Below, piece after piece: positions 10,012 through 34,539 of a DNA stretch of 43,753 bases. Origin of the DNA: Candidatus Methanofastidiosia archaeon (GTDB lineage: Archaea > Methanobacteriota_B > Thermococci > Methanofastidiosales > Methanofastidiosaceae); contig PWMA01000154.1 in the NCBI GenBank assembly GCA_003558335.1, positions 1-43,753 of the forward strand, written 5' to 3'. Numbering within the stretch: position 1 is the first letter of the stretch; each line of letters opens with the position of its first letter. A program made the position numbers and the translations under genes. The notes below the pieces were generated by a model. It made no database searches. It worked only from the letters and a program-made list of their open reading frames with translations, and was not told the DNA's origin.

Positions 10012-10038
10012 AATACTTAAATAACCTTGAGGAGAACA

Positions 10039-11652
10039 ATGCTAAAAAAATATCCAAGCATAATAGTTTTATCAATACTTATATCAGCACTCATTATTCC
10101 AGCTGCTTATGGTAATACGAATACAAATTTTCTTGTAAATGTTGTTAGAGTAAATGGAACTCCAATTCAAGATGCATCAGTAACAATTACTCTACAAGAA
10201 GATACAAACTATCAAAGATCTGGAAGTTCCAATTCTAGAGGCGAAGTATTTTTTGAAAATATAAGAGAAGGAGTTTATAAAGTTAATATTTCAAAAAGCG
10301 GTTTTGCGTCTATAACTAAAGACGTTGATATTTCACAAATTGAGTCAGAAAAATTTTATCTTAGAAGCAGCGGATTTAAAATAATTTCAGGTCACGTTTA
10401 TAGGGATTTAAATAATGATAACAATATTGATTTCGGTGAACTTGGAATTTCTAATGCAACTGTCACTGCAACAGGAGTTACATCAAATCAATCTTTTTCT
10501 ACAGCTACAGATGAAAATGGACAATTTAGGATTGAAGTTCCCGATGGAGAAAATTACACAGTTAAAGCTTCTTATTCCACTTCAGAATATCAGTTACCAA
10601 CTTCAGTTGTTCCGACAGATACAATCGACTATTCTATAAACATACCTTTAGTAATAAAAGGGGATGTAATTGGAAAAGTTACAACTGAAGACGACGCGCC
10701 TTTATTTGGTGTCCTTGTTTTTCTCAAAGGAACAACGGTATCATACACATCAACAGATCTTGGTGGATTTTTTAGATTTTCCGTTAAACCAGGAGAGTAT
10801 TTTTTAGAAGTTGAATTTAGAGATTATGAAAAGTACACTTCAGAAACTTTTAAACTTGAAGAGGAAGAGCAAAAAGAATACACAATCGTTTTATCTAAGA
10901 GAAAAGGTATACTTACATATGAAATAAAGACAGAAGATGGCAAGACTTTATCTGAAGTTGATGCCGAAATAATACGCACTGGAACTGGAGACTTAGTTGA
11001 AAAAATTAATAAACCATCGGGAACAGTTTCCTTAATTCCAGGAGTTTATACATTAATAGCTGATGCTAGAGGATATGATCCTTCCGAAGTTATATTTGAA
11101 ATTACTGAAGATGGAATTTCAAAGTCAATTACTTTAGATCAAGCAGACGGCTCCATAAAAGTTTCTTTAAGAGATCCAAGGGGAAATCCCATAAGTGGTG
11201 TTTCCATTCTTGTTGATGGAGTCCAAAAAGGTACCTCTGATGATTCGGGGGTAATAGTAATATCTGATCTGCCTCCAAAACAATATGAAGTCACAGCATC
11301 TTCTACACTACACGGGAAAGTAACTCAGCTAGTTACTGTTGAAGGAGAAACTGAAAAAGAAATAAATTTAGTTTTAGAATCAAATATATTGACTCAGGCA
11401 TTGCCTTTCATAGTTATAGCTGGATTTATAGTGATTATATTTCTATTAAAGAAAAACTTAAAATATGGCGAACTCACAAAAAAACCACTTGGAAAACAAT
11501 CAACTCAAGATACACCGGTTCAAGACAATGTTTCAAATGCTGAAGAAAGCAAGGATTTCTCAGAACCAAAACCTATCAAAAAATCAAAACTTAAAACAAA
11601 GAAACCTTTAAGGGGATTACCAAAAAGACCTTCTAAGAATATGGAAGAATAA
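10039..11652 (+). CDS. cell-surface protein with repeated carboxypeptidase-regulatory-like (beta-sandwich) domains, signal peptide and C-terminal TM anchor
   Basis: N-terminal signal MLKKYPSIIVLSILISALIIPAAYG. Repeated modules of about 80-90 aa fit the pattern G.V.D..G.P..GV.V...G...T.D..G.F. C-terminal TM is ALPFIVIAGFIVIIFLL, followed by a Lys-rich tail. ATG 10039 follows GAGGAG, and the track's TTG at 10027 is less likely. Confidence 0.7.
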   Translation: MLKKYPSIIVLSILISALIIPAAYGNTNTNFLVNVVRVNGTPIQDASVTITLQEDTNYQRSGSSNSRGEVFFENIREGVYKVNISKSGFASITKDVDISQIESEKFYLRSSGFKIISGHVYRDLNNDNNIDFGELGISNATVTATGVTSNQSFSTATDENGQFRIEVPDGENYTVKASYSTSEYQLPTSVVPTDTIDYSINIPLVIKGDVIGKVTTEDDAPLFGVLVFLKGTTVSYTSTDLGGFFRFSVKPGEYFLEVEFRDYEKYTSETFKLEEEEQKEYTIVLSKRKGILTYEIKTEDGKTLSEVDAEIIRTGTGDLVEKINKPSGTVSLIPGVYTLIADARGYDPSEVIFEITEDGISKSITLDQADGSIKVSLRDPRGNPISGVSILVDGVQKGTSDDSGVIVISDLPPKQYEVTASSTLHGKVTQLVTVEGETEKEINLVLESNILTQALPFIVIAGFIVIIFLLKKNLKYGELTKKPLGKQSTQDTPVQDNVSNAEESKDFSEPKPIKKSKLKTKKPLRGLPKRPSKNMEE

Positions 11653-13085: not shown

Positions 13086-13894
13086 TTTTGAAAGATATCC
13101 AGTACTTATTCATAGATATAGATGGCGTGCTTTACAAAGGACGTTATCCTATCAAGGGGGCCAAAGAATTTATTGATTATTTAATTGAAGAAGATATAAA
13201 ATTCATTTGTGTTACTAATAACTCTTCCAAAACAGCTGAAAACTATTCTAAAAAATTGAAGAGTATGGATATGAAAATAGAAAAAAATCAAATAATAAAT
13301 TCAGGTGTCGCTACAGTAGAATATATTAAAGATAAATACCTAGCAAGAAATGAAAACTTAAGCGCTTATGTAGTGGGAGGAGAAGGACTTATAGAAATTG
13401 TTAAAAATTCTGGAATAAAAATTCAAGACAAAAATCCAGATATAGTAGTAGTTGGGTGGGATGTAAATTATACTTATGAAAAAATGAAAAAAGCATCGCT
13501 AGCTATTAGAAAAGGCGCTATATACATAGGCACAAATCCAGATATAACTTATCCTTCCGATGAAGGTATACTTCCAGGATGCGGTTCAATTTTGGCATCA
13601 ATAACAACGGCCAGCGAAGTTGAACCTATTATAATAGGAAAGCCAAAACCTTTGATAATGGAAATGGCAGCCAAAAGGATTTCAGCAAATAAAAAGAAGA
13701 GCCTGATGATTGGAGATAGAATCGATACTGATATTCTCGCTGGAAAAAATTTTGGAATTCAAACTGCGCTTGTATTAAGTGGAGTATATAATAATTCTGA
13801 ACTATTGGACTCTTCTATAAAACCAGATTATGTTTTTGAAGATATAATGGAGCTATATGTTAATTTGAAAGAATATAGAAAGGTGCACAAATGA
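13082..13894 (+). CDS. HAD-IIA family hydrolase (NagD-like sugar/nucleotide phosphatase)
   Basis: FIDIDGVLYKG (DxDG motif), VTNNS and GDRIDTDILAG motifs. It overlaps the neighbours on both sides by 4 nt. Confidence 0.8.
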   Translation: MILKDIQYLFIDIDGVLYKGRYPIKGAKEFIDYLIEEDIKFICVTNNSSKTAENYSKKLKSMDMKIEKNQIINSGVATVEYIKDKYLARNENLSAYVVGGEGLIEIVKNSGIKIQDKNPDIVVVGWDVNYTYEKMKKASLAIRKGAIYIGTNPDITYPSDEGILPGCGSILASITTASEVEPIIIGKPKPLIMEMAAKRISANKKKSLMIGDRIDTDILAGKNFGIQTALVLSGVYNNSELLDSSIKPDYVFEDIMELYVNLKEYRKVHK

Positions 13895-14382
13895 AAAATA
13901 ATAAGTTATTAGTTTTTTCATTGATAATAATTTTTTTAACACCCCTTTGTATTAATAACTCTCTTGAAAATTGGAATACAAACATAAAAGCCGCAAATAC
14001 AAGACTAGATAGAGGAATAGAATACTACAATCTTGCTTCTTCTGCTTATTCCATTCAAGATATGGAAAATATTACAATTTATGCCGATAAATCAATAGTA
14101 GAATTATCAATAGCTTTAAACTTTATAGAAAATGCAATTAACGATGCACATGAATCCCAAAAAGATTGGCTAGTACTTTATACAAGTTACTACTTTAAAA
14201 AAGTTCAAGCACTTAAGAATGCGGCAAATGAAATGAATAAATTAAAACAATATTATCAAAACGGACAAGAAGATGAACTCTTCATTTCATTAGAAACTAT
14301 AAAAAAATATGAAGGTGAATTTAAAATCTATGATACAAAAATGGAAGATATAAAAAGGGAAAACATCTCAGAATTTCAATAG
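13891..14382 (+). CDS. hypothetical secreted or lipid-anchored helical protein
   Basis: N-terminal hydrophobic segment ending LTPLC (lipobox-like). The rest is predicted helical. ATGA start/stop coupling to the HAD gene. Confidence 0.5.
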   Translation: MKNNKLLVFSLIIIFLTPLCINNSLENWNTNIKAANTRLDRGIEYYNLASSAYSIQDMENITIYADKSIVELSIALNFIENAINDAHESQKDWLVLYTSYYFKKVQALKNAANEMNKLKQYYQNGQEDELFISLETIKKYEGEFKIYDTKMEDIKRENISEFQ

Positions 14383-14384
14383 GC

Positions 14385-14930
14385 TTATCTTTTCTTTTGA
14401 ATAATTTTTTCAGGATAAGTAAAATAAGGCCCTCCAAGATGATTTATATACTTTACTTTTTCTATATTTATACAATCATTGTAGAACTCTTCTTCAATTT
14501 CTGAATGTACAATCTCACCAACAAATAAGTAATGATCTCCACATAAAAAAGAATCAGTTAATTTGCATTCAAGAAAAGCAAAACATTCTTTTATAGAAGG
14601 TGAGGAAATTTCTTTACCTTTAACTTCTGTGAGGCCGTACTCTTTAAATTTATCATTATTTTTACCACTTTCAGAACCACAAAGAATGGTTTTATCTAAA
14701 AGTTCAAAAGACGGAATATTTACCGTGAACTCTTTAGAGCCATTTATCAATTCGTGAGACAATTTTTTCGTTGAAAGTGCTATTGATATAAGTGGTGGAG
14801 AGTGAGAAACTGGACTCGACCATGCTATTGTAACGATGTTAGATTTTTCTTGATACTTAGAAGTAACTAGGACTAGAGGTCCGGGATTTAATAACCTTAG
14901 TCCTTTTAGGTTTTCTATTTTAGTTTTCAT
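14385..14930 (-). CDS. flavin reductase-like FMN-binding protein
   Basis: LLNPGPLVLVTSKYQEKSNIVTIAWSSPVSHSPPLISIAL is typical of the split-barrel flavin reductase family. Confidence 0.7.
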   Translation of the reverse strand: MKTKIENLKGLRLLNPGPLVLVTSKYQEKSNIVTIAWSSPVSHSPPLISIALSTKKLSHELINGSKEFTVNIPSFELLDKTILCGSESGKNNDKFKEYGLTEVKGKEISSPSIKECFAFLECKLTDSFLCGDHYLFVGEIVHSEIEEEFYNDCINIEKVKYINHLGGPYFTYPEKIIQKKR

Positions 14931-15412
14931 TCTATCTTATATCCTATTTTTTCTAATAAATCTCTTCTTTCTTTTTTTTCATGTTTATCTTCAATCTTTT
15001 CTGCAGAAGTTCCATCAACAATTCCTATTATAGAATTTCCTAGATTAGTTTTTGCTACAATTACTTGGAAAGGATTTTCACTAGCCCCATATATCCTACA
15101 TACAGAAGGATGATTTTTTATACTATTCAAAACATTGATTGGAAAAGCACCACGCATCATTATAACAAATAAATGCCCTGCTCCAATATCCAATGCTGCA
15201 TTAGCAGCAAGATCTTTTAGATGTTGATCATTTCCTGCAACTCTTGTTATTTTTGGCTTTGATTCATTCATAGCAACGCCAATTTTAATTCCTGCAACAC
15301 AAGTTAGAAGAGTCTTAGCAAGATCATCAACAGTATATATAGAAAAGTTTCCTTGGCCAACTATGAACTCCACGCCCTCATCTTTTTTTATATCAATAAT
15401 ATTCATTTCCAT
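14927..15412 (-). CDS. adenosine-specific kinase family protein (PAE2307-like)
   Basis: GAGHLFVIMMRGAFPINVLNSIK...RIYGASENPFQVIVA matches the recalled family pattern. Length is about 160 aa. Confidence 0.65.
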   Translation of the reverse strand: MEMNIIDIKKDEGVEFIVGQGNFSIYTVDDLAKTLLTCVAGIKIGVAMNESKPKITRVAGNDQHLKDLAANAALDIGAGHLFVIMMRGAFPINVLNSIKNHPSVCRIYGASENPFQVIVAKTNLGNSIIGIVDGTSAEKIEDKHEKKERRDLLEKIGYKIE

Positions 15413-15443: not shown

Positions 15444-16097
15444 CTACTCTATACATCTATTAAGAGCTTCAAATGCAAGTACCATATCTTTCTCATTAAC
15501 TACAAATATAGTGTCCATAAAACAACTCATAGTTTCAATAACATTTATACCCACAGAAGAAAGATTTGAAGATAGATATGAAACTACTCCTGGAGTATTT
15601 CCAATGTCTTCTGGACTCTTAACAGATATTTCAACTAAATTTTTAGATACTCTTAATATATTTTCTTTTCCTATAACTCCTGTAACATCGTCAAGATAAT
15701 CTTCAAGTAAGATTAATGTTATTCCTTGAGAGCCCTGTATAATGTTGATTAAATATCCTTCAGAAAGAGTTTTTTTCAAAATTGGTTCAAGTTTTAGAAA
15801 AACATGCCAGCTAGGCTTTAACGTTACAGTTGCAACTTTAGTTTTTATATTTATTCTGCTTTTTTTTAAAATTAATTTTATTTTTTTCTCGAGAAAATTT
15901 TTTTCTTTTTGTAATTCTTCAGCATATCTCCTTGAGGCGATGAGTACTGCAACCATATTGTCTATTTTGTATTCATCCATTATCATTCTTGAGAGTGCGG
16001 AATAATTTATTATTCCATATCTAAGACAATCCATTATAGAAGGATGTGCACCTATATATTCTCTAACTATTTCGGCTATACTTTTTTTGTCTGACAC
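15444..16097 (-). CDS. predicted regulator with C-terminal ACT-like domain (COG2150-like)
   Basis: N-terminal helical/HTH-like region (IAEIVREYIGAHPSIMDCLRYGIINYSALSRMI) and a C-terminal ACT-like segment (GVVSYLSSNLSSVGINVIETMSCFMDTIFVV). Confidence 0.5.
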   Translation of the reverse strand: MSDKKSIAEIVREYIGAHPSIMDCLRYGIINYSALSRMIMDEYKIDNMVAVLIASRRYAEELQKEKNFLEKKIKLILKKSRINIKTKVATVTLKPSWHVFLKLEPILKKTLSEGYLINIIQGSQGITLILLEDYLDDVTGVIGKENILRVSKNLVEISVKSPEDIGNTPGVVSYLSSNLSSVGINVIETMSCFMDTIFVVNEKDMVLAFEALNRCIE

Positions 16098-17325: not shown

Positions 17326-18012
17326 TTGATATCTCTAGATGATGCAGTTACTGCAAAACTCAAGTATCAAGGGGAAAATTTTGAGATTTTAGTAGATCCT
17401 AAAAAGGCTCAAGATTTTAAAGAAGGGGGTGAAGTAGAAGATTTCCTTGCAGCAAATTTTATTTTTAAAGATGCAAATAAAGGAGATAAAGCATCACCTG
17501 AAACTCTTAAAAAAGTATTTGGTACTGAAAGCGTCAATGAGATTTCAAAAATTATTTTAAAAAAAGGAGATATACATCTAACTACAGAACAAAGAAGAGC
17601 AATGATGGAGAATAAGAAAGCTCAGGTAGTTTCTTATATCTCTCAACATTCTATAAATCCTTAAACAGGACATCCTCATCCTCCACAAAGAATAGAAAGT
17701 GCCTTAGATGAAGCTAGGGTCACTATAGATATGTACAAGAGAACTGAGGATCAGATTAAACAGATAATCCATGCACTTGCTCCCATACTGCCTATTAAAA
17801 TTGAAAATAGAAGGATTGGAGTAAAAGTACCTGCTGAACATGCACCAAAAACTATGGGATTTATAAAAGATCTTGGAACAATTATTAAAGAAGAGTGGGG
17901 ACGCGATGGCTCTTGGATGTTTGTAATTGAAATACCTGCAGGACTACAGGATGATCTTTTCAACAAATTGAACAATGCTACAAAAGGAAATGTTGAAACA
18001 AAAATAATGTAA
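17326..18012 (+). pseudogene. SBDS-family ribosome maturation protein, interrupted by one in-frame TAA (17662-17664)
   Basis: Track ORFs 17326-17664 and 17731-18012 share a frame (offset 405 nt). Translation across the stop reads ...SQHSINP*TGHPHPPQRIESALDEARVTIDMYKR..., a continuous SBDS sequence. Confidence 0.7.
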
Positions 18013-22017: not shown

Positions 22018-22491
22018 ATGCCCTACGATCCGAAAATAGATTACTATGAATTAATTGGAGATATTACACCTTCATCTAATTTAAAACAGATTAAGAGATC
22101 CTACAGAAAAAAAGCTTTAAAATATCATCCGGATAAAAATCCTGGAAAAGAAGAATGGGCTAAAAATAAATTTCTTGAGCTAAAATATATTTATGAAATT
22201 CTTATAGATAAAGAAAAAAAAGAGCGATATGATATAGATAGAGAAAAATACTTATCTTTTAAAAATCCTACTAGTTATGAAGTGCGGCCTGATTGGAAAT
22301 ATACAACAAATCTCAATATTAACTCTCTAGATATAAATCTAAATTCGATAAATTTTGTAAAAAGAAAACCTTATGTAGTTCATGATTATGGAAAAGACTC
22401 AAACCAAATTTTCATAAGAGTTTTTATTTATTCAGTTATGTTTATTATGGTTTTAGTTACAATATATATGTTAATCTATATTAATCAATAA
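22018..22491 (+). CDS. J-domain (DnaJ-like) protein with C-terminal transmembrane anchor
   Basis: DYYELIG...IKRSYRKKALKYHPDKNPG carries the HPD motif. C-terminal TM is IFIRVFIYSVMFIMVLVTIYMLIYI. No G/F or zinc-finger region is present. Confidence 0.8.
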   Translation: MPYDPKIDYYELIGDITPSSNLKQIKRSYRKKALKYHPDKNPGKEEWAKNKFLELKYIYEILIDKEKKERYDIDREKYLSFKNPTSYEVRPDWKYTTNLNINSLDINLNSINFVKRKPYVVHDYGKDSNQIFIRVFIYSVMFIMVLVTIYMLIYINQ

Positions 22492-23353
22492 GTGCCTTTT
22501 TTTCTATATACTTTTCCACCATTTTGGCATTCAATAGAGGCACTTTTAATCCCATAAGTATTTTCTCTGCAGCAATTCTTTTCAAGATTTCTCTTTCCCC
22601 ATGGTCCTGAGATATTCTTTCAAGATCTTTAATAAATTCTGAGGAATTCAACTTTGAAAGAACTGCCGAAATATCTTCTTCTTTAAACCTACTTTTTTTT
22701 GGTATCATATCTTCTACAAGTTTATCAAGAGACTTCATATCAAACTTGTCAGACATAAAATCATATATTTTGTTATTGAATGATTCTCTAATTGATAGTA
22801 AAAGCATTGCTATATCAAAGTCTTCAGTAAGTTCTTCAACTTCCATTCTCTTTACACACTTCCAACCATTATAGTTTCCCAAAAAATGGACCATTTCTTT
22901 ATTTGTTTCAAGTTCATTTCCCTTATCTTGAATAGGATTCTCTCCAAGATAGTTATCAAAGACATCTGGCGTAAGTCTTTCAATGCCTAGTTTTTCTAGC
23001 ACCATTTCTGTCAGGATCCCCTTTGCAATACTTTTTGCTTCCTTTATAGTTGCTATTTCCGATAATTTTTTTGTTGTAGCAGGAGATTTTACCTTATAAA
23101 GAGCACTAGAAATTCCATCCCCTTCACTTATAATTGAATTAACTATGTTTTGTATATAATTAAGATCAAAATCTTGCCCCAAATATTCAAATATTTTTTC
23201 ATTAAATGATTCTCTTATAGATAATAACAATCGTGCCATATCGAGTTTATCTTTTTCTTCAATAGTTTCAAAACCTTTGTAGCATTTCCATCCTTTATAA
23301 TTACCGATGAACTCAACTTTTTCAGGCATAGCCATCCGATCACCTAATTTCAT
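22481..23353 (-). CDS. hypothetical protein built from two tandem homologous modules of about 140 aa
   Basis: Module 1 is VEFIGNYKGWKCYKG...MARLLLSIRESFNEKIFEYLGQDFD. Module 2 is VHFLGNYNGWKCVKR...IAMLLLSIRESFNNKIYDFMSDKFD. No family was recognised. Confidence 0.55.
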   Translation of the reverse strand: MKLGDRMAMPEKVEFIGNYKGWKCYKGFETIEEKDKLDMARLLLSIRESFNEKIFEYLGQDFDLNYIQNIVNSIISEGDGISSALYKVKSPATTKKLSEIATIKEAKSIAKGILTEMVLEKLGIERLTPDVFDNYLGENPIQDKGNELETNKEMVHFLGNYNGWKCVKRMEVEELTEDFDIAMLLLSIRESFNNKIYDFMSDKFDMKSLDKLVEDMIPKKSRFKEEDISAVLSKLNSSEFIKDLERISQDHGEREILKRIAAEKILMGLKVPLLNAKMVEKYIEKKALID

Positions 23354-25514: not shown

Positions 25515-25822
25515 AACACAACTATTCTATTGAGATGGATATAGGCAATGTCAAAGGAGATGAACCATTAGTTTCTTTCATAGGTGTAGTAGTTTCTATA
25601 GACCCATCAACTTATATGATGATCATTGATGATGGAACAGGAGCAATAAGTGTTTCCTCAGATATGCTTTATGACGTAGAAAAAATACTAAGGGTAATTG
25701 GCATCCCATATAAAGAAGGTGGACAGATAATTGTAGATTCTGATATAATCCAAGACTTTTCTGATTTTAAAATAGATCTCTTCAGAAAAGTACAAGACAT
25801 TGAGAAGGAGGTCTATCAATGA
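25511..25822 (+). CDS. replication protein A small subunit (RPA14-like OB fold)
   Basis: 103 aa with an OB-like core (VSFIGVVVSIDPSTYMMIIDDGTGAISV). It is coupled by 4-nt overlaps between the RPA41-like and RPA32-like genes. Confidence 0.6.
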   Translation: MKHNYSIEMDIGNVKGDEPLVSFIGVVVSIDPSTYMMIIDDGTGAISVSSDMLYDVEKILRVIGIPYKEGGQIIVDSDIIQDFSDFKIDLFRKVQDIEKEVYQ

Positions 25823-26586
25823 AAAAAAGAATGCCATCTTCAAGATTGTCTTTAGCAGAAATTCAAAAAGGTTATTTTGTAAAACCTGAAGATGACTTTG
25901 CAACTAATTATGTTATTACTCAAGATGGTTTGAAGGTTTATAGGCTAAAAGGAATTGCAACAATAATGTCAGAACCTAGATTATCCGATGATGGTACCTA
26001 TGGCTCAGTTTTTCTAGACGATGGATCACAAAACATAGTTGCTCTAGCATTCAGAGAAAATACTAAGCTCTTAATGTCAATTAAGAAAGGAGATTTGGTT
26101 CAGTTCATAGCAAAACTTAATGAGTGGCAGGGTAAAAAGCAGCTTACAATTGAAGCTTTATCTTTAGTTTCTTCCAATATGCTTACCTTACATAGGGCTG
26201 AATCTGTACTTACTAAACTCAAACAGAAAAAATATTTTAATATAGCTCAGAAGATATACGAAGAGGAAAAAAATGTTAGAAAGGCAATGGATCGTGCTAA
26301 AAAAGAAGGAATAAATCCAGACTTGATAGATGCCATTGAAGAGTTAAACTATCTCAAAGAATATGCAGAAGAAAATCGCATCTTTGATTCTGATACAGTT
26401 CTTGAATCAAAAGTTTTAGATGCAATTGAAAAACTTGATGAAGGCGATGGAGTTGTGCTTGATTTAATACTTTATGAATTAAAAGATGACTATGTAGCTG
26501 ATGACATTGATAACGCTGTAAGAGAACTTCTTTCTAGAGGGGATCTATATGAGCCAAAAGTGAACTACTTTAAAAAGACAAATTGA
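25819..26586 (+). CDS. replication protein A middle subunit (RPA32-like OB fold + C-terminal winged helix)
   Basis: OB core LKGIATIMSEPRLSDDGTYGSVFLDDGSQNIVALAF...WQGKKQLTIE plus a C-terminal wHTH-like region. It is third in the coupled operon. Confidence 0.65.
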   Translation: MKKRMPSSRLSLAEIQKGYFVKPEDDFATNYVITQDGLKVYRLKGIATIMSEPRLSDDGTYGSVFLDDGSQNIVALAFRENTKLLMSIKKGDLVQFIAKLNEWQGKKQLTIEALSLVSSNMLTLHRAESVLTKLKQKKYFNIAQKIYEEEKNVRKAMDRAKKEGINPDLIDAIEELNYLKEYAEENRIFDSDTVLESKVLDAIEKLDEGDGVVLDLILYELKDDYVADDIDNAVRELLSRGDLYEPKVNYFKKTN

Positions 26587-26598
26587 TGGTGAGTTATA

Positions 26599-27138
26599 AT
26601 TAGAAAATATCAAATAGGCGTTATCGGATCTGCACGTGGTAATATAGATGAAGATATAAATCTAGTAGCAAAAGAACTTGGAAGAGCTATTGCTAAAAAT
26701 AACTTAATTCTTTTTTCTGGCGCTTGCCCAGGTCTTCCACTTGAAGCTACAATTGGCGCAAAAGAGTTTGAAGGTATCACAGTTGGAATCTCTCCTGCAA
26801 TTAATATAAAAGAACACGTTGAAAACTATAAATATCCATATGATGTATTTGATACATTGATATTTACTGGATCTGGGTATAAAGGCAGAAATGTTACTTT
26901 AGTAAGAAGTTGTGATGCAGTTATTTCCATACAAGGAATGATTGGCACTCTAAATGAGCTTACTATAGCATACGACGAAAAAAAGATTATTGGATTATTA
27001 TTGGGAACAGGAGGAGCTTCTGATCTATTTTTAGATCTTTTAAAGAAAATTGATAAGTCAAACGAAAATGTTTTAACTTCTGATAATCCTTACGATTTAA
27101 TTGAAAAAATAATAGAAGTTTTAGATAGAATTCATTGA
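26599..27138 (+). CDS. LOG/TIGR00725-family (SLOG, Rossmann-like) protein; apparent non-canonical ATT start
   Basis: The frame is open from the TGA at 26590 and reads (I)RKYQIGVIGSARGN...FSGACPGLPLEA...QGMIGTLNELT (LOG-type GxGTxxE). The first ATG/GTG/TTG in frame is TTG 26857, which would remove the Rossmann N-terminus. ATT 26599 lies 5 nt after GGTGAG. Confidence 0.65.
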   Translation: MRKYQIGVIGSARGNIDEDINLVAKELGRAIAKNNLILFSGACPGLPLEATIGAKEFEGITVGISPAINIKEHVENYKYPYDVFDTLIFTGSGYKGRNVTLVRSCDAVISIQGMIGTLNELTIAYDEKKIIGLLLGTGGASDLFLDLLKKIDKSNENVLTSDNPYDLIEKIIEVLDRIH

Positions 27139-28040: not shown

Positions 28041-28199
28041 TTGAAAAATCTTGAACTACCAATAATACTCATATTAATGGCATTGCCATTTTTTATAATT
28101 AAAAGTGAAGACTTCACCACTTATATTTACTGGGCACTTGTATCTTTTGGCTATTTAATTTATATTACATTTTCTACGAGAAGGTGGGCAAATGAATAA
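28041..28199 (+). CDS. possible small two-helix membrane protein upstream of the symporter
   Basis: Not in the track (52 aa). A TTG start gives (M)KNLELPIILILMALPFFIIKSEDFTTYIYWALVSFGYLIYITFSTRRWANE. It overlaps the symporter start by 8 nt. Confidence 0.3.
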   Translation: MKNLELPIILILMALPFFIIKSEDFTTYIYWALVSFGYLIYITFSTRRWANE

Positions 28200-29547
28200 T
28201 ATGCTGTTGATTATTGGAATTTATGCAATAATTGGAACCGTCATAGCTTTGTATTCAAGAGGGGCAAAAACCCAAGAGAGTTTTTTTATAGGTGACAGGA
28301 GTATAGGTGGTGTAGTTTCTGCACTTACTTATGCAAGTACAACTTTTTCAGCATTCATGATGGTTGGTTTAGTCGGATTAGCTTATGCGACTGGCGTCGG
28401 AGCTTTAGGTTTTGAGTTAGTTTATCTTGTGGGAACTCTTTTCTTCTTGTCCTTTTATGGCCCCAGAGTATGGAAAATTGCTAAAGAAAGAAATGTTGTT
28501 TCTCCCTCGGGAATTTTAGAACATAGGTATGGTCTCAAAACTGTAAAAACTGCCGCCATCATATCTCTCATTGCACTTGTACCTTACACTTCAGTACAGC
28601 TTACAGGAGTTGCTCTAATTCTTGAGCAAAATGCCAGTATTACTTATTCAACTGGAATAATAATAATTGGACTTTTAGTAGCTTTATGGACATTCCTTGG
28701 AGGTCTTAGGGGTGTAGCATTAACAGATTCAATTCAAGGCATTTTAATGATTTCTTTGTCTATAATAACATTAGCATGGGTAACAGCAAGAGTTGATTTC
28801 TCTGCTATTTCTTCACTAGGCCAAGCAATGTATGTTCCAAATCCAGTATGGACTCCTAAATTCTTCTTGTCATTAACTATACCGTGGTTTTTCTTTGCTT
28901 TAACAAATCCACAAGTTTTTCAAAGAATGTTTATCTCTAAAGATTTAGCTTCACTAAGAAAAATGATTGTATACTTCGGATTATTTGGACTATTTTATAC
29001 TGTCATAGTTACTCTAATTGGAATTCAATTAAGAATTTTGACTTTTGAAGGTCTTTTTCCATTGGTAGAATACAGAGATAATGTCACACCAATTTTACTT
29101 TCAATAATGCCTGAATGGATATCTCTATTGGTGGCATTAAGTATTATTGCCGCCTCAGTTTCAACTGCAAACTCAATTGTTTTGACATTATCTTCAATGG
29201 TTTCAAAGGACATTGTTAAGGAGAAAGGAATACTATATGGAAAAATTACCATTGTTTTACTAACTTTGGTGATTTCTTTGTTTGCAGTTAGAAAAGTAAG
29301 CTATATCGTGGAACTTTCAGTTTTGTCTTCTACCATACTATTGTGTTTATTACCTCTAATATTTGGATTGTTCCACTCTGAATTGGGAAAAGATTTAACT
29401 GGAATCTTAACTATTCTAAGTGGATTTTTTGTTTCAATAGCTTTAACTTTCCTAAATCTAACTCCACTTGGGATCCCGATACCAATTATAACCCTAGCCG
29501 TTTCATTTTCCACATTTTTAATTGTTGGAAAAATAGAGTCAAAATAA
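28192..29547 (+). CDS. sodium:solute symporter (SSS) family transporter
   Basis: 451 aa and about 12-13 TM segments. FFIGDRSIGGVVSALTYASTTFSAFMMVG is typical of the SSS N-terminal region. Confidence 0.8.
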   Translation: MNNMLLIIGIYAIIGTVIALYSRGAKTQESFFIGDRSIGGVVSALTYASTTFSAFMMVGLVGLAYATGVGALGFELVYLVGTLFFLSFYGPRVWKIAKERNVVSPSGILEHRYGLKTVKTAAIISLIALVPYTSVQLTGVALILEQNASITYSTGIIIIGLLVALWTFLGGLRGVALTDSIQGILMISLSIITLAWVTARVDFSAISSLGQAMYVPNPVWTPKFFLSLTIPWFFFALTNPQVFQRMFISKDLASLRKMIVYFGLFGLFYTVIVTLIGIQLRILTFEGLFPLVEYRDNVTPILLSIMPEWISLLVALSIIAASVSTANSIVLTLSSMVSKDIVKEKGILYGKITIVLLTLVISLFAVRKVSYIVELSVLSSTILLCLLPLIFGLFHSELGKDLTGILTILSGFFVSIALTFLNLTPLGIPIPIITLAVSFSTFLIVGKIESK

Positions 29548-29597
29548 ATTTAGAATCTAGTAGAAAATCTTTTATTGTTATTAAATATTAATTGGAT

Positions 29598-30008
29598 ATG
29601 ATAACTAGAATGTTCGTTATTGCAGATAATTCATCTTTAACTCCTCAAACTGTAGTTAACTATATCGTAAGCCTTGGAAAAACTTTGAACATTAAAGATA
29701 CTTGTTATGGCATTATGGTCGAAGGTGATGGTGATGTTGTTGAGAATGTTACATTAAAAGTTAGAGATAAATTTAATGGGGATATATTCTCAAAACATAG
29801 GGCTTATCCAATAGGCGATGAAAGAAGATGTAGAGCTACAAGAGGAGGAGGCGCAAGACCTGGATATTATTTTTTAATACAAGAGTATAAAATGTTACCA
29901 TTTATATCTAAAGTTCTTAAAGAAAAAAGATTTAAAAAAATTGATAAAAAAAAGGTAAAACCTGTAGATGTAGATTTATTGAAGAAGGTAATTAAGGAGA
30001 AGGTGTAA
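29598..30008 (+). CDS. mmp6: methanogenesis marker protein 6
   Basis: ITRMFVIADNSSLTPQ...CYGIMVEGDGDVV...PIGDERRCRATRGGGARPGYYF matches the recalled Mmp6 pattern. TTG 29592 is an alternative start. Confidence 0.8.
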   Translation: MITRMFVIADNSSLTPQTVVNYIVSLGKTLNIKDTCYGIMVEGDGDVVENVTLKVRDKFNGDIFSKHRAYPIGDERRCRATRGGGARPGYYFLIQEYKMLPFISKVLKEKRFKKIDKKKVKPVDVDLLKKVIKEKV

Positions 30009-30010
30009 GT

Positions 30011-30445
30011 TTGAAAGTTTTTATTTATCCTCCAAATAGTATGATCTTACAAGATTTAGTTGAGAGATTTGGACACACTCCACTTGCACTTGCCAAAGAG
30101 ATAGATAGAAGAGTAAATGATCCAGAGCTTGATTCTCCTCCGATGAACATAACTGAAATAGATGTAAAAATTGGATTGAAATATGCTGCAATAGAAGTTC
30201 CTTCTGGAGTTAGAGGTAGACTCGCTTTGTTTGGCCCACTAATCGATGAAGCCGAGGCCGCCATAATTGTAAATAACTTCCCATCTACATTTGGTTGCAT
30301 GGCTTGTGCAAGAACAAACGAACTTACTATTTATTTGATTAAACAAAAGAAGGTTCCAACATTAGAACTTGATTATCCTAAAAATGAAGAAGAAGTAGAA
30401 GATTTTGTTGCAAGAATTAAGGAATTCTTGGAGGATTTAAAATGA
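30011..30445 (+). CDS. mmp5: methanogenesis marker protein 5
   Basis: (M)[30 protein letters not shown]...DSPPMNITE...[15 protein letters not shown]...[13 protein letters not shown] is near-canonical Mmp5. The TTG start follows GGAGAAGGTG. Confidence 0.85.
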
Positions 30446-31659
30446 TTAAAATAGCTCAACTTTCCTGCGGCAATGATTACAGTGGAATACAAAAAGAAAT
30501 CGAGAAGGCAGCAGAAACAGTAGGCGCCAAAATAGTCTTTCCTGATGTTGATATAGATTTTGATGAAGCTGTAGAAGAATTTGGATTCAATCCTGTGAGT
30601 GCAGGGTTAAAACTAATGATTGCAAGAGCAAAAGCCCTTGTAGATAAATCTTTTGAAGCAGACGCCGTATTTATAGCAACATGTTTTAGATGTGCAGAAG
30701 GATCTCTAATCAGAAATGAACTTAGAAGATATCTTCAGAAACATACAAGACTCCCAGTTGTAATGTATTCTTTCACAGAGAATACTCGTGCAAGCGTACT
30801 TCTTACAAGAATGGAGGCACTTGTGACTATTGTTAAAAGAAAAGATTTATTGGGGAGAGAGAGGCAAGTTGGTATTACAATGGGCATTGATTCAGGATCG
30901 GCTACTACTAAAGCAGTAATTATGCAGGAAAATAAGATAATAGGAAAGTACTGGAGTCCAACTACAACAGTAATTGAATCTGCTGAAGCTGTGGTAAAAG
31001 AAGCTCTTAAAAAAGCTAAAATGGATATTAAAGATATAGAATCCATTGGAACAACTGGTTATGGTAGATATATGATAGGAAAACATTTCAAGGCAAAACT
31101 TGTTCAAGAAGAATTAACTGTAAATTCTAAAGGGGCAGTTTTCCTTGCCGATAGACAAAAAGGCGAAGCAACAATATTGGATATAGGCGGAATGGATAAC
31201 AAAGCTATAGCTGTAATGGACGGGATTCCAGATAGCTTTACAATGGGAGGAATATGTGCGGGCGCCTCAGGAAGATTTTTAGAAACAACTGCAAAGAGAC
31301 TCGGTCTTGAAATTGGAGAGTTTGGAGATCTTGCAGCCAAAGGAGATCTTCATAAAGTACCAATGAATAGTTATTGTACTGTATTTGGAATTCAGGGATT
31401 AGTTTCAGCTTTAGCTGAAGGCTATAATAAAGAAGATGTGGCGGCCGCAGCGTGTAGAAGCGTAGCCGAGCAGATTTATGAACAACAACTTCAGGAAATT
31501 GATGTAAGATATCCTCTAATTCAAGTTGGAGGCACTTCCCTTCTGAAAGGGCTCGTTATGGCGGTAGGCGATATATTAAAGACTGAGCCTTTAGTCCCTC
31601 CAGATTCTCAATATATCGGTGCAGTTGGTGGAGCCCTACTTTGCTCAGGATTTATCTAA
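30442..31659 (+). CDS. mmp15: methanogenesis marker protein 15 (N-terminal Cys-containing domain fused to BcrAD/BadFG/HgdC-type ATPase)
   Basis: The ASKHA/activase motifs are [36 protein letters not shown] and VGGTSLL. The N-terminal domain carries [14 protein letters not shown] coupling to mmp5. Confidence 0.85.
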
Positions 31660-31669
31660 AGGGGATGCA

Positions 31670-32212
31670 ATGGAAATAATAGTTGAAGGATTGCCAGAGA
31701 AAGAATCTCAAGGTTATGTAACTCTTATTAATGATATAATGAGAGAATTTGAGATAAGGAGAAGTGTAGAAAAAGTATATTTTTATGGCGATACTGAAAA
31801 CTTTGTTTTCATCGCTTCAATCAGAATAAAAAAAGTTTTAGAACCTCTAAGAATAGAAGACGTTGCTACCTACAATCCAGAAAAAGAAATCTTATCTGTT
31901 GAAGATGAATTTTATGTTCCAAAAATTTTGTCTCTTCTTTGGTCATTTTCAAAAGAAGAAATTGAACAAAAAGATAGAACTGAAATTAAAATACCTTCTG
32001 AAATATTCAATAAATTAAAATCTGAAATCGTCTATTACCCTACTGAAGATTTGAAAAAAAATGTTCAAGAAGCAATAAATAGAATTTTACCTGAAGCCGC
32101 TAGAATTAAATATATACTCTCTGCCGAAAAAACTATCACTGTGGCATCAAGTGAAAATGCACTCTCCGATGAAAACAAAAAGCTTGCACATAAAATGCAT
32201 GAGAGGGATTAG
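31670..32212 (+). CDS. mmp17: methanogenesis marker protein 17
   Basis: About 180 aa starting MEIIVEGL after AAAGGGG. It holds the position between mmp15 and mmp7. The longer track start at 31619 would overlap mmp15 by 41 nt. Confidence 0.7.
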   Translation: MEIIVEGLPEKESQGYVTLINDIMREFEIRRSVEKVYFYGDTENFVFIASIRIKKVLEPLRIEDVATYNPEKEILSVEDEFYVPKILSLLWSFSKEEIEQKDRTEIKIPSEIFNKLKSEIVYYPTEDLKKNVQEAINRILPEAARIKYILSAEKTITVASSENALSDENKKLAHKMHERD

Positions 32213-32222
32213 GTGAATTTCA

Positions 32223-33146
32223 ATGTTTAAAATGGCATTATTTGAAGGTGGACTTCACAGGGCCGACGAGTTAGAAGATCTTGTAGATGATCTTGGTGGT
32301 TTTTTAATTCAGAAGAACGTCACTCAAATAGATATAACCCTTATAATGGCTGTACCCGGAGAAGATTACGAGCTTATTAAAGAAAAAGCAAAGGAGTTAA
32401 GGGGAAAAATAGTAGAAGTTCCTCTTGCAGGTTCAGAAATTACAATTGTTTCACCCTCTCTTGGAAAACATCATCTTCCTCATCCAGTTTGTGATATTTC
32501 AGAATACATAAGAAGAAATGGTGCTGTAACTAATGTAATGGGTCTTGCAAGAGGGGTAGGCCAAAGAATAAATCAGATAACTGCGGTGGAGAAAGGAATG
32601 ATAGAAGAAGCCGATGTTGCAGTTTATTCTTTGGGAAATTTCAGCCACTGTCTTGAAAAAAAGACTCATCTTTTCATGGATATTGAAATACCTGTGGTAG
32701 TACTTGGTGGTCCTGAAAAATTTATAGCTGAAGGTCTTGATTATTATGTTGGTGGTATTGGAAGAAGAAGTCAAAGACTTCGTCAAAAATTTGATTTAGA
32801 TATTTTTGATATTATGGTAAGTGAAATATCAAAAGCAGTTGAAAAAAGACGAAGAGAAATAGAAGAAGATCCTTTAGTTATTGAGCCAATATATCTAAAA
32901 AAAATTATAGAAGAAAATGTTGAAGGAATAGATAAGATTGTATCTCCCATTCCTGTAGTATTGAATGTAGATGGGATTAAAGTAAAAATGCCTTTGAATC
33001 AATTCATAGAAAAAATAAAAAATATTGAATTTGATGGTAGGAAAATAGAAGAATACTGTAATATTTATCAATCACCTTATAGTGGAATTACTATACTTAA
33101 GATATTTACAAAGTCTTATTTCGAATCAATAGATAAAAAATCTTAA
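32223..33146 (+). CDS. mmp7: methanogenesis marker protein 7
   Basis: 307 aa beginning FEGGLHRADELEDLVDDLGGFLIQ, with ...VVVLGGPE.... AGGTGA lies 7 nt upstream. Size and position fit Mmp7. Confidence 0.75.
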   Translation: MFKMALFEGGLHRADELEDLVDDLGGFLIQKNVTQIDITLIMAVPGEDYELIKEKAKELRGKIVEVPLAGSEITIVSPSLGKHHLPHPVCDISEYIRRNGAVTNVMGLARGVGQRINQITAVEKGMIEEADVAVYSLGNFSHCLEKKTHLFMDIEIPVVVLGGPEKFIAEGLDYYVGGIGRRSQRLRQKFDLDIFDIMVSEISKAVEKRRREIEEDPLVIEPIYLKKIIEENVEGIDKIVSPIPVVLNVDGIKVKMPLNQFIEKIKNIEFDGRKIEEYCNIYQSPYSGITILKIFTKSYFESIDKKS

Positions 33147-33147
33147 T

Positions 33148-34539
33148 CTAATTCCAATTATTCTTGAGATAATAAAAATAAAAAAGAACTAAAGGAGTTC
33201 CAAATAGTCCATATACCAATAAATTTATAATACTTGAAGGAAATAATCCTACCAAACTTTCAAATAAGACCATTAATATAAAAATACCTATTGACAAAAT
33301 AACAAATCTTTTATCTGGGATAAATATAATTCCTAAACTTTTTGAGATTAATATCATTCCAATTATACAGGATACCAGAGTTGAAAAAGCTGCTCCGTTT
33401 ATGTTATAAACTGGAACCAATAAAAAATTTAGAATTACATTTATAGTAGCTATTAACGCTGTTATCTTCATGGGCTGCCACTGTTTTCCAATACCTTGTA
33501 AAGATGTTGATCCAATATAAAAAATTGAGTAGAATATCATAGCAATTGACAAAATTTTTAGAACCCATCCACCTTCCTGGATACCAAATAGAAAATATAT
33601 AATTGGATTTGAAAATGCAAAAAGTGAAAGTGCAACAGGAAGTGTAAAACTAAATGAAGATTTAAGTGAAACTAAAATGCTATCTATTTTTTCCCTTTCA
33701 ATTGATTTCAATCTTGAAATCTCAGGCAGTAACACTGCAGACAAAGCTATTGCAAATGAAGGAACTATTCCTGCTGTAGGTGAAGCCATACCATAAATTC
33801 CAACTGTTTCAGGCCCAAAAAATCTAGCCAAGACGTATATATCTGCATTGAAAAGAAGCACAAGACCTAATGAGAATATAGAAACAGGAATAGCAAATTC
33901 TAAAATTTTTCTAAACTCTTTATAATACTCATTTTTTAGTTTTAATTTTATGCCACTCTTCATGACAAACAAAAAAGATACTATTATCCCAACTAGATAT
34001 CCTCCTACAAGGGATCCAGAAGCACCAGAAACTCTGAACATATATGAAAGAGGGACTGAAAGTAAAAAATAGGATAGTGAAAGAGCAAATATTGAAATTG
34101 CCATATAATTTACTTTTTTTATACCAAGTAAGATTCCATTAAAAACTGAAAATATAAAACCAAGAGGGACTACTAAAAGAATTATTTTAAGAGGTATGGC
34201 TATACCTTCCCTTATCTCAGGTGAGTAGTAGTTTAATATAAATGGATTTAGAGCAAATAAAAAAGTAAACAGTGCAATTCCAATTGGTATAAAAAATAGA
34301 GAAGATGATATTTTTTCCGATTTATTTTCTGAATCAAAAATAGATGTGAATCTTGATACTGTAGGCGCTATTCCAAAAGAAGAAAGAATTAGAATAAGTG
34401 ATTGAAAAGGCATAATAGCTGTTAGAAATCCATACTCTGAGAGGAGAAGTATGTTTGCAGTAAAAAGTATGAATAAATAATTTGCGACCCTTGAGAATGA
34501 ATTTGCTAAAAGAAGTATTAAAGATTTCTTGATCATCAT
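33148..34539 (-). CDS. polysaccharide/oligosaccharide flippase (MOP superfamily, Wzx-like)
   Basis: 463 aa and about 12-14 TM segments. The N-terminus LLANSFSRVANYLF is typical of polysaccharide biosynthesis (Wzx) proteins. Confidence 0.7.
   Translation of the reverse strand: MMIKKSLILLLANSFSRVANYLFILFTANILLLSEYGFLTAIMPFQSLILILSSFGIAPTVSRFTSIFDSENKSEKISSSLFFIPIGIALFTFLFALNPFILNYYSPEIREGIAIPLKIILLVVPLGFIFSVFNGILLGIKKVNYMAISIFALSLSYFLLSVPLSYMFRVSGASGSLVGGYLVGIIVSFLFVMKSGIKLKLKNEYYKEFRKILEFAIPVSIFSLGLVLLFNADIYVLARFFGPETVGIYGMASPTAGIVPSFAIALSAVLLPEISRLKSIEREKIDSILVSLKSSFSFTLPVALSLFAFSNPIIYFLFGIQEGGWVLKILSIAMIFYSIFYIGSTSLQGIGKQWQPMKITALIATINVILNFLLVPVYNINGAAFSTLVSCIIGMILISKSLGIIFIPDKRFVILSIGIFILMVLFESLVGLFPSSIINLLVYGLFGTPLVLFYFYYLKNNWN

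Follow-up and report, generated by a model that had tools for sequence, protein, structure and literature searches.

The mmp6-5-15-17-7 cluster of a Methanofastidiosum-related archaeon as the probable core of a methyl-coenzyme M reductase activation operon

Introduction

Nearly all biological methane is produced by methyl-coenzyme M reductase (MCR), and the reduction of its nickel cofactor to Ni(I) is only partly understood. A role in this reduction is considered here for five neighbouring genes on contig PWMA01000154.1 (assembly GCA_003558335.1) of a Candidatus Methanofastidiosia archaeon. These genes encode the methanogenesis marker proteins (Mmp) 6, 5, 15, 17 and 7, in this order, and lie within a stretch of 43,753 nucleotides (nt), the complete contig, that was analysed as a whole and is called the window here.

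The evidence makes it probable (roughly 0.7) that the five genes are the core of an MCR activation operon, with a promoter of their own and coupled translation, in which Mmp7 and Mmp17 form the entry of an electron wire and Mmp6, Mmp5 and Mmp15 would act as an electron injector. That the cluster serves MCR activation in general is close to certain. It is the Methanofastidiosum orthologue of a published operon, and thus already known and ordinary for a methanogen. A first-pass annotation of the window, made from the sequence alone, had proposed a module for the reductive activation of MCR, and this proposal is borne out: Mmp7 and Mmp17 occur in the solved activation complex, while Mmp5, Mmp6 and Mmp15 occur in a co-transcribed operon of M. 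acetivorans. The proposal is not new, as the operon is published and sister genomes already annotate these genes as methanogenesis markers. Likewise, the statements that these families are only phylogenetic markers and that most subunits lack functions are outdated for Mmp7 and Mmp17, although Mmp5, Mmp6 and Mmp15 remain uncharacterised.

Composition of the cluster

Five open reading frames (ORFs) follow one another on the plus strand between positions 29598 and 33146, densely packed, as seen from the ORF list and from the junctions read in the sequence. The cluster and its putative control region comprise the following features:

29558 to 29597, plus strand: promoter-like block, with a BRE-like AGAAAAT (29562-29568) and a TATA-like TTTTATTG (29570-29577)
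29598 to 30008, plus strand: mmp6, 136 amino acids (aa), DUF2102/TIGR03272; C36 (TCYG), C78 (RRCRA), an RPG motif and then a Lys-rich tail
30011 to 30445, plus strand: mmp5, 144 aa, DUF2112/TIGR03271; TTG start; C96-x-x-C99
30442 to 30870, plus strand: N-terminal domain of mmp15, residues 1-143; C9, C81 and C84; no Pfam match
30871 to 31659, plus strand: ATPase domain of mmp15, residues 144-405, of the BcrAD/BadFG/HgdC activase type; phosphate-1, phosphate-2 and adenosine motifs; C272 and C312
31670 to 32212, plus strand: mmp17, 180 aa, DUF2113/TIGR03291; ATG start within a listed GTG ORF; no cysteines
32223 to 33146, plus strand: mmp7, 307 aa, MCR_C/TIGR03274; H84, C90 and C143

A protein was assigned to a family when its whole-protein hidden Markov model (HMM) score exceeded the curated NCBIfam cut-off. 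All five do so: Mmp6 scores 129 against TIGR03272 (cut-off 125.95), Mmp5 232.7 against TIGR03271 (140.25), Mmp15 695.5 against TIGR03286 (455.75), Mmp17 104.5 against TIGR03291 (67.1) and Mmp7 360.8 against TIGR03274 (349.15), the margins of Mmp6 and Mmp7 being narrow. The corresponding Pfam families for Mmp6, Mmp5, Mmp15, Mmp17 and Mmp7 are, respectively, DUF2102, DUF2112, BcrAD_BadFG (residues 148-400), DUF2113 and MCR_C. The reading of all five as methanogenesis markers 6, 5, 15, 17 and 7 is thereby established, and the more specific motifs named with it were recovered as well. The CxxC of Mmp5 is present, with C96 and C99 invariant in 121 sequences; the Arg/Gly-rich motif of Mmp6, RRCRATRGGGARPGYY, is also present, and across 69 diverse sequences its C78-R and RPG parts reach a conservation of at least 90%; and in Mmp15 the quoted activase ATPase motifs lie behind a Cys-bearing N-terminal domain.

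The description of five consecutive plus-strand genes, joined by gaps of 2-10 nt or by a 4-nt ATGA overlap, proved accurate. Every internal start is preceded by a purine-rich, Shine-Dalgarno-like stretch. Between mmp6 (stop at 30008) and mmp5 (TTG at 30011) there is a 2-nt gap, with GGAGAAGGTG before the start; mmp5 and mmp15 overlap in the ATGA at 30442-30445, with GGAGGA before the start; mmp15 (stop at 31659) and mmp17 (ATG at 31670) are separated by 10 nt with AGGGGA; and mmp17 (stop at 32212) and mmp7 (ATG at 32223) are separated by another 10 nt with TAGGTGA. One boundary had to be revised: mmp6 most likely starts at the ATG at 29598, and not at the TTG 6 nt upstream (29592) that the first-pass annotation had chosen, because the 136-aa product annotated by NCBI begins at the ATG and the TTG is not conserved in relatives.

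Among 12 Methanofastidiosum loci, the approximately 43 nt that precede the Mmp6 ATG hardly vary, whereas no relatedness remains farther upstream. Within this block the TATA-like element is centred about 25 nt ahead of the ATG. Both this label and that of the transcription factor B recognition element (BRE) are ours, taken from the general archaeal promoter consensus, and the elements presumably act as such. From its position, the block would be a dedicated promoter, and the transcript would have no leader or almost none.

Conservation of the operon core

The closest characterised relative is the "MCR activation operon" of M. acetivorans, which combines A2 with Mmp5, 6, 17, 7, 3 and 15, is co-transcribed according to reverse transcription PCR (RT-PCR), and yielded no clean deletion of any of its genes (bioRxiv 10.64898/2026.03.18.712670). 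This operon and the M. marburgensis genes MTBMA_c04360-c04410 have the five families, in tight linkage, in common with the window. A scan of one genome per species gave 332 confirmed Mmp15 loci, 80 of which were compared with the window, 13 of them from Methanofastidiosum and the rest mostly from Methanomassiliicoccales. The order Mmp6-Mmp5-Mmp15-Mmp17-Mmp7 is the same in all 80, wherever the contig allows it to be followed, and the inferred distances between the genes are almost always from -8 to +13 nt.

Comparison with the Methanofastidiosum orthologues gives pairwise ratios of non-synonymous to synonymous substitution rates (dN/dS) of 0.01-0.09 for all five genes, values that are approximate, with dS saturated, and that indicate strong purifying selection on each of them. 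The cluster arrangement is far beyond chance, because these ratios are found together with HMM E-values of 1e-30 to 1e-209 across the five proteins and with an order kept in 80 loci. The idea that the genes are adjacent by accident, or are expressed independently and form no unit, is therefore extremely improbable. Against it stand the identical order at such short distances in loci from two orders, the promoter-like block, which is the only conserved one in the cluster and lies upstream of mmp6 alone, and the RT-PCR result on the homologous M. acetivorans operon (bioRxiv 10.64898/2026.03.18.712670).

The members of the unit do not evolve at the same pace. Cross-order identity to the proteins of the window is about 70% for Mmp15, 57% for Mmp5, 40% for Mmp7, 39% for Mmp6 and 25% for Mmp17, the fastest-evolving member. 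The two least understood proteins, Mmp15 and Mmp5, are thus the most constrained, since it is they that have the highest identities.

Outside Methanofastidiosum, mostly in Methanomassiliicoccales, the core is part of a longer series in the order atwA-mcrC-mmp3-mmp6-5-15-17-7, in which the upstream trio scores 742 bits (atwA, TIGR03269), 294 bits (mcrC, TIGR03264) and 447 bits (mmp3, TIGR03268). Both mmp3 and mcrC are found within 10 kb of the cluster in 62 of these 67 loci (L015-L081), and atwA in 50 of the 67. In contrast, neither mmp3 nor mcrC lies near the cluster in any of the 13 Methanofastidiosum loci, nor in the window. Compared with the M. acetivorans operon, the window and the 13 other Methanofastidiosum loci lack A2 and Mmp3 and have their own promoter-like block; compared with the Methanomassiliicoccales cluster, they lack an in-cluster McrC. 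The core can be detached from A2, McrC and Mmp3, and this detachment shows mmp6-5-15-17-7 to be the unit that evolution keeps undivided. In Methanofastidiosum it is flanked upstream by a PHP phosphoesterase gene and downstream by MurJ-like and DUF7343 genes.

Two further observations were made on these loci. A gene for a 141-aa, Cys-rich, DUF123/GIY-YIG-like protein follows mmp7 after about 9 nt (L048:2795-3220) and recurs at this position in 57 Methanomassiliicoccales loci; neither the Methanofastidiosum loci nor the window contain it, and it may be either an additional member of the operon or a nuclease with no relation to it. Additionally, some contigs with the mmp operon belong to bins labelled as bacterial (among them Bifidobacteriaceae, Ruminococcus, Bacteroides salyersiae and Dialister hominis; loci L019, L020, L021, L026, L033, L053 and L061), most likely through contamination during binning by Methanomassiliicoccales contigs.

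Mmp7 and Mmp17 at the entry of the electron wire

The function of two of the five proteins can be read from solved structures. The activation complex of M. maripaludis, determined by cryo-electron microscopy in 2025, consists of McrC, Mmp7, Mmp17, Mmp3 and A2 on MCR (PMC12176620; PDB 8S7V, 8S7X, 9H1L). The path to cofactor F430 runs through three [8Fe-9S-C]-like clusters, which resemble the L-cluster of nitrogenase; FeSIII is located at the Mmp7/Mmp17 interface, with H84 and C143 of Mmp7 as ligands, and C90 of Mmp7 lies beside FeSII (PMC12176620).

The Mmp7 of the window matches chain 8s7v_H with an E-value of 3.2e-76 over residues 1-302, gap-free through residue 150. Checked by position, H84, C90 and C143 are all retained, and they are at least 95% conserved in 74 sequences. 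Mmp17, encoded 10 nt upstream of mmp7, matches 8s7v_G with an E-value of 3.2e-5 over residues 16-178. Homology to the solved structures thus shows Mmp7 and Mmp17 as predicted parts of the MCR activation complex, holding its outermost cluster, FeSIII. These two subunits are what the window shares with the M. maripaludis complex, which also has McrC, Mmp3, A2 and MCR, none of them encoded in the window, and which itself lacks Mmp5, Mmp6 and Mmp15.

Mmp15, an activase-type ATPase with a putative acceptor-like domain

The C-terminal domain of Mmp15 is readily classified. It matches PF01869 with 226 bits over residues 148-400 and TIGR00241 with 309 bits (cut-off 125.4), and residues 146-401 align over the full length with HadI (4EHT), MbdQ/MbdP (9GAI; MbdQ as 9GAI_D), HgdC (1HUX) and DCCP-R, the reductase of the double-cubane cluster protein (DCCP; 7YYL_E). 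Its phosphate-1, phosphate-2 and adenosine motifs are in register with their counterparts in 1HUX and 4EHT. In addition, C272 aligns with C127 of HgdC and C312 with C166, both Mmp15 residues being invariant in 15 sequences (alignment A1). We take C127 and C166 to be the bridging-cluster cysteines of HgdC, their numbers having been counted from the alignment. By alignment, C272 and C312 are accordingly the predicted counterparts of the cysteines that bridge a [4Fe-4S] cluster in the HgdC dimer. Next to the HgdC/HadI/BcrAD/DCCP-R activases ("archerases"), the C-terminal domain of Mmp15 thus appears as a full-length activase with both bridging-cluster cysteines. A third cysteine of the ATPase domain, C338 (AAAC[R/H]SVAEQ), is invariant in Mmp15, and the corresponding position has no cysteine in HgdC and HadI.

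The N-terminal domain, of 143 residues with C9, C81 and C84 invariant, gives no Pfam match even at E<=10, and searches of the PDB with the single sequence and with a profile returned only chance-level hits. Its AlphaFold2 model (predicted local distance difference test, pLDDT, 87.0; predicted template modelling score, pTM, 0.83) is a four-stranded alpha/beta domain. The top Foldseek match of this model in the PDB is HadB of 2-hydroxyisocaproyl-CoA dehydratase (3o3o_A, E 6.9e-4), followed by MbdO/N of 3-methylbenzoyl-CoA reductase (9gai_A and 9g87_A, TMq 0.60-0.63) and by DCCP (7yzm_A, 7yyl_A and 6eno). Overall, the acceptor-type matches have E-values of 7e-4 to 1e-2, probabilities of 0.99-1.0 and TMq of 0.52-0.63 (1.0 and 0.57-0.63 for the best of them), with the targets covered in part, and generic flavodoxin and CheY folds rank lower (TMq 0.40-0.45). 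In the model, therefore, the fold of the N-terminal domain appears to resemble that of HadB, MbdO/N and DCCP, the acceptor subunits of HgdC-type activases.

Several features would set Mmp15 apart from these known systems. Compared with the acceptors HgdAB/HadBC, BcrBC/MbdON and DCCP, the Mmp15 part has only about 143 aa, roughly a third as many as HadB or DCCP, forms one chain with the ATPase and has no sequence-level similarity to acceptors of the PF06050 type. Moreover, the presumed final acceptor of Mmp15 is a metallocluster wire to F430, whereas the known activase systems act on a CoA thioester or a small molecule.

Mmp5 and Mmp6

Mmp5 may be a relative of the Mmp15 N-terminal domain. Its AlphaFold2 model (pLDDT 82.5) is a small alpha/beta domain whose secondary-structure elements follow one another in the same order, and the CxxC lies at the same strand-3/helix-4 junction. 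The Foldseek matches of highest probability are weak and again of the acceptor type, BzdNO (8s02_B, E 0.05) and DCCP (7yyl_A, E 0.18), both with partial coverage of the target. A profile-profile comparison with hhalign gives a weak local match between Mmp5 and the Mmp15 N-terminal domain over the CxxC regions (probability 24%, E 8e-4). In sequence-based searches, Mmp5 has no acceptor-type Pfam match even at E<=10, and PDB searches with sequence and profile gave nothing beyond chance. A chimeric alignment of Mmp5 and the Mmp15 N-terminal domain, built from the fusion protein P0009, was discarded: MAFFT had placed the Mmp5 sequences on the Mmp15 N-terminal domain and not on the Mmp5 half.

Mmp6 belongs to a very small family: 1.84 billion proteins contain 74 representatives of it at 50% identity. 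C36 and C78 are conserved in this family. A word-indexed search for homologues returned 15 proteins, all Methanofastidiosum-like except two at 40% identity. PDB searches with sequence and profile remained at chance level (uL15, for instance, matched the GGGxRPG stretch at E 1.1), and profile-profile comparison with Mmp5, the Mmp15 N-terminal domain, Mmp17 and Mmp7 revealed no relationship. One candidate, P0275 (1302 aa, with 10 matches to Mmp6 residues 60-97), proved to be a spurious tandem-repeat translation.

Electron injector or assembly machinery

According to these assignments, the proteins may be divided between two parts of one pathway. Mmp17 and Mmp7 would be the entry end of the L-cluster electron wire, which leads via the McrC-bound clusters to the nickel of F430, and Mmp6, Mmp5 and Mmp15 would be a separate, transiently docking injector of the HgdC/BcrAD type. 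As in HgdC, C272 and C312 would bridge a [4Fe-4S] cluster that joins two Mmp15 molecules into a dimer, and this cluster would be reduced by a physiological donor, for instance ferredoxin. Binding and hydrolysing ATP would then push a very low-potential electron into a second Fe-S site, formed by C9, C81 and C84 of the Mmp15 N-terminal domain together with the CxxC of Mmp5, and possibly by Mmp6 through its C36 and C78. FeSIII on Mmp7/Mmp17 would take over the electron from this site, and Ni(II)-F430 would be its final destination.

An ATP-driven electron injector made of Mmp6, Mmp5 and Mmp15 is a tentative proposal, somewhat short of even odds. Slightly more tentative is its specific form, a miniature, self-contained "archerase" in which the ATPase is fused to a cut-down acceptor domain and Mmp5, as a diverged paralogue of that domain, completes a pseudo-heterodimeric Fe-S acceptor as its other half; the whole would be the missing physiological, ATP-coupled supplier that feeds the L-cluster wire with electrons below -600 mV. 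Mmp15 has been raised elsewhere as a possible transiently associating ATPase, with reference to Shelton et al. 2025 (bioRxiv 10.64898/2026.03.18.712670). The purified complex is active with Ti(III) citrate and inactive with dithiothreitol (DTT), and additional clustered Mmp proteins have been proposed to be necessary for physiological activation (PMC12176620); an injector would explain why it needs Ti(III) citrate while cruder fractions are active with DTT. The fold neighbours of the Mmp15 N-terminal domain are the partner proteins that HgdC-type ATPases reduce, and this supports the injector model without proving it. A physical Mmp6-Mmp5-Mmp15 complex receives anecdotal support from gene fusions, namely an Mmp5-Mmp15 fusion of 558 aa (P0009, L082:6001-7677) in an A2-McrC-Mmp3-Mmp6 context and two Mmp6-Mmp5 fusions of 259 and 299 aa (P0262, L083:249-1028, and P0284).

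A number of points weigh against an injector. Mmp5, Mmp6 and Mmp15 are not part of the purified, solved complex and are not mentioned in the main text of its description, and this complex activates MCR in vitro with A2 as its only ATPase (PMC12176620). A2 is a genuine ATPase, stimulated by MCR (bioRxiv 10.64898/2026.03.18.712670). Because A2 is such an ATPase and the complex that has only A2 works, the existing data do not call for a second ATP-dependent step. The likeness of the Mmp15 N-terminal domain to acceptors lies at the level of the fold only, with an E-value of about 7e-4, about one third of each target covered and no sequence or Pfam signal. As for Mmp5, Foldseek gave no match at E<=0.001, and the 24% probability from hhalign is barely above that of control pairs. 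Finally, each fusion is known from one metagenomic contig only, and a frameshift at an overlapping stop/start junction may have created it artificially.

The same three proteins could instead be maturation factors, which, together with NifB, would draw on ATP and reducing power for the assembly, reductive fusion or insertion of the [8Fe-9S-C]-type clusters of McrC and Mmp7, with Mmp7 and Mmp17 remaining subunits of the complex. The L-cluster-like nature of these clusters speaks for such a role, as does the fact that nifB follows the cluster of further mmp genes in M. marburgensis (PMC12176620), and nifB is reported to be essential in M. acetivorans (bioRxiv 10.64898/2026.03.18.712670). A DCCP stands among the structural neighbours of the Mmp15 N-terminal domain, the seven conserved cysteines spread over Mmp6, Mmp5 and this domain could form a scaffold site, and assembly factors would be expected to be missing from a purified mature complex, as Mmp5, Mmp6 and Mmp15 are. 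However, nifB is missing from the vicinity of the cluster, both in the window and in the 80 loci that were compared. To our knowledge, every characterised ATPase of the HgdC/BcrAD family is an ATP-coupled electron donor to a partner Fe-S protein, and we know of no cluster insertase among them. The inactivity of the complex with DTT, set against the activity of the cruder A3a fraction with the same reductant, also points to a missing redox function and not to a missing cofactor. A maturation role is, on balance, unlikely.

Genomic surroundings and host

Outside the cluster, the window mostly holds genes for archaeal housekeeping functions: RFC, ThyX, proteasome alpha, SBDS, exosome Rrp4/41/42, Hjc, RPA, PanE and ArgRS. 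Scans for tRNA genes and Rfam families in the window gave no matches. The gene immediately upstream of mmp6 (28192-29547) belongs to the sodium:solute symporter family, its best match being panF-like and below the cut-off. The first-pass annotation had noted that the cluster directly follows this gene, and the adjacency is real, but the symporter is no part of the unit: it stands between the PHP phosphoesterase gene and mmp6 in this genome only, and in none of the 80 related loci. It is best read, from this comparison, as a lineage-specific insertion in a variable spot. At the other end, mmp7 stops at 33146, and a single base separates it from the stop codon of a convergent gene for a membrane protein of the MurJ/polysaccharide-synthesis type (33148-34539, minus strand).

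Profile searches of the window ORFs of at least 100 aa gave no match for mmp3, atwA, mcrC, mcrABG or nifB, in keeping with the earlier remark that mmp3, mcrC, atwA and mcrBDCGA are lacking here. Mmp15 is 91% identical to a protein of Candidatus Methanofastidiosum methylothiophilum, and a twin contig of 10.5 kb occurs in assembly GCA_003563815.1. According to the literature, Methanofastidiosaceae are methyl-reducing methanogens that have inherited Mcr vertically (PMC9635834; PMC7302380), and the host is taken as an MCR organism because the family is reported to have this enzyme. Mmp3, McrC and A2, which the full complex needs, would have to be encoded elsewhere in the genome.

Given the lack of mcr genes in the window, and given that marker genes can outlast the loss of Mcr in some archaea (PMC9635834), the cluster might be thought of as a set that is left over or has been repurposed and has no connection with MCR in this organism, in which Mmp15, for example, activates another radical enzyme. 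The reported inheritance of Mcr in the family speaks against it, and so do the strong purifying selection on the five genes and the intact ligand residues. No partner gene of the HgdAB or BcrBC type lies nearby, and Mmp15 reaches 695 bits on its own model and only 60-86 bits on those of benzoyl-CoA reductase subunits. Such a fate of the cluster is very improbable.

Some other ORFs of the window deserve a brief record. The SBDS gene looks split: the ORF at 17326-17664 (112 aa) covers only positions 1-114 of the 231-position TIGR00291 profile, and the C-terminal part is apparently a separate ORF at 17731-18012 (93 aa), through a frameshift, an assembly error or a true split. The ORF at 26857-27138 covers only the C-terminal half (positions 76-158) of TIGR00725, and its real start is probably upstream, at a start codon that was not listed or beyond a frameshift. 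The ORF at 10027-11652 (541 aa) has no NCBIfam match at E<=0.001, and those at 13891-14382, 14927-15412, 15444-16097, 22481-23353 and 25819-26586 are also without a family match.

Implications for MCR activation

The local peculiarities of this locus are minor, namely the detachment of the core from atwA, mcrC and mmp3, the conserved promoter-like block and the upstream symporter insertion. In being detached from A2, McrC and Mmp3, however, the five-gene core of Methanofastidiosum offers a clean, minimal example of what is conserved in the operon. The predicted fold of the Mmp15 N-terminal domain is a useful lead that is not specific to this window: its link to the acceptors of activases provides a concrete hypothesis for the three uncharacterised subunits, Mmp5, Mmp6 and Mmp15. 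If this hypothesis is true, the archerase would constitute a second ATP-dependent step in the activation of MCR, alongside A2.

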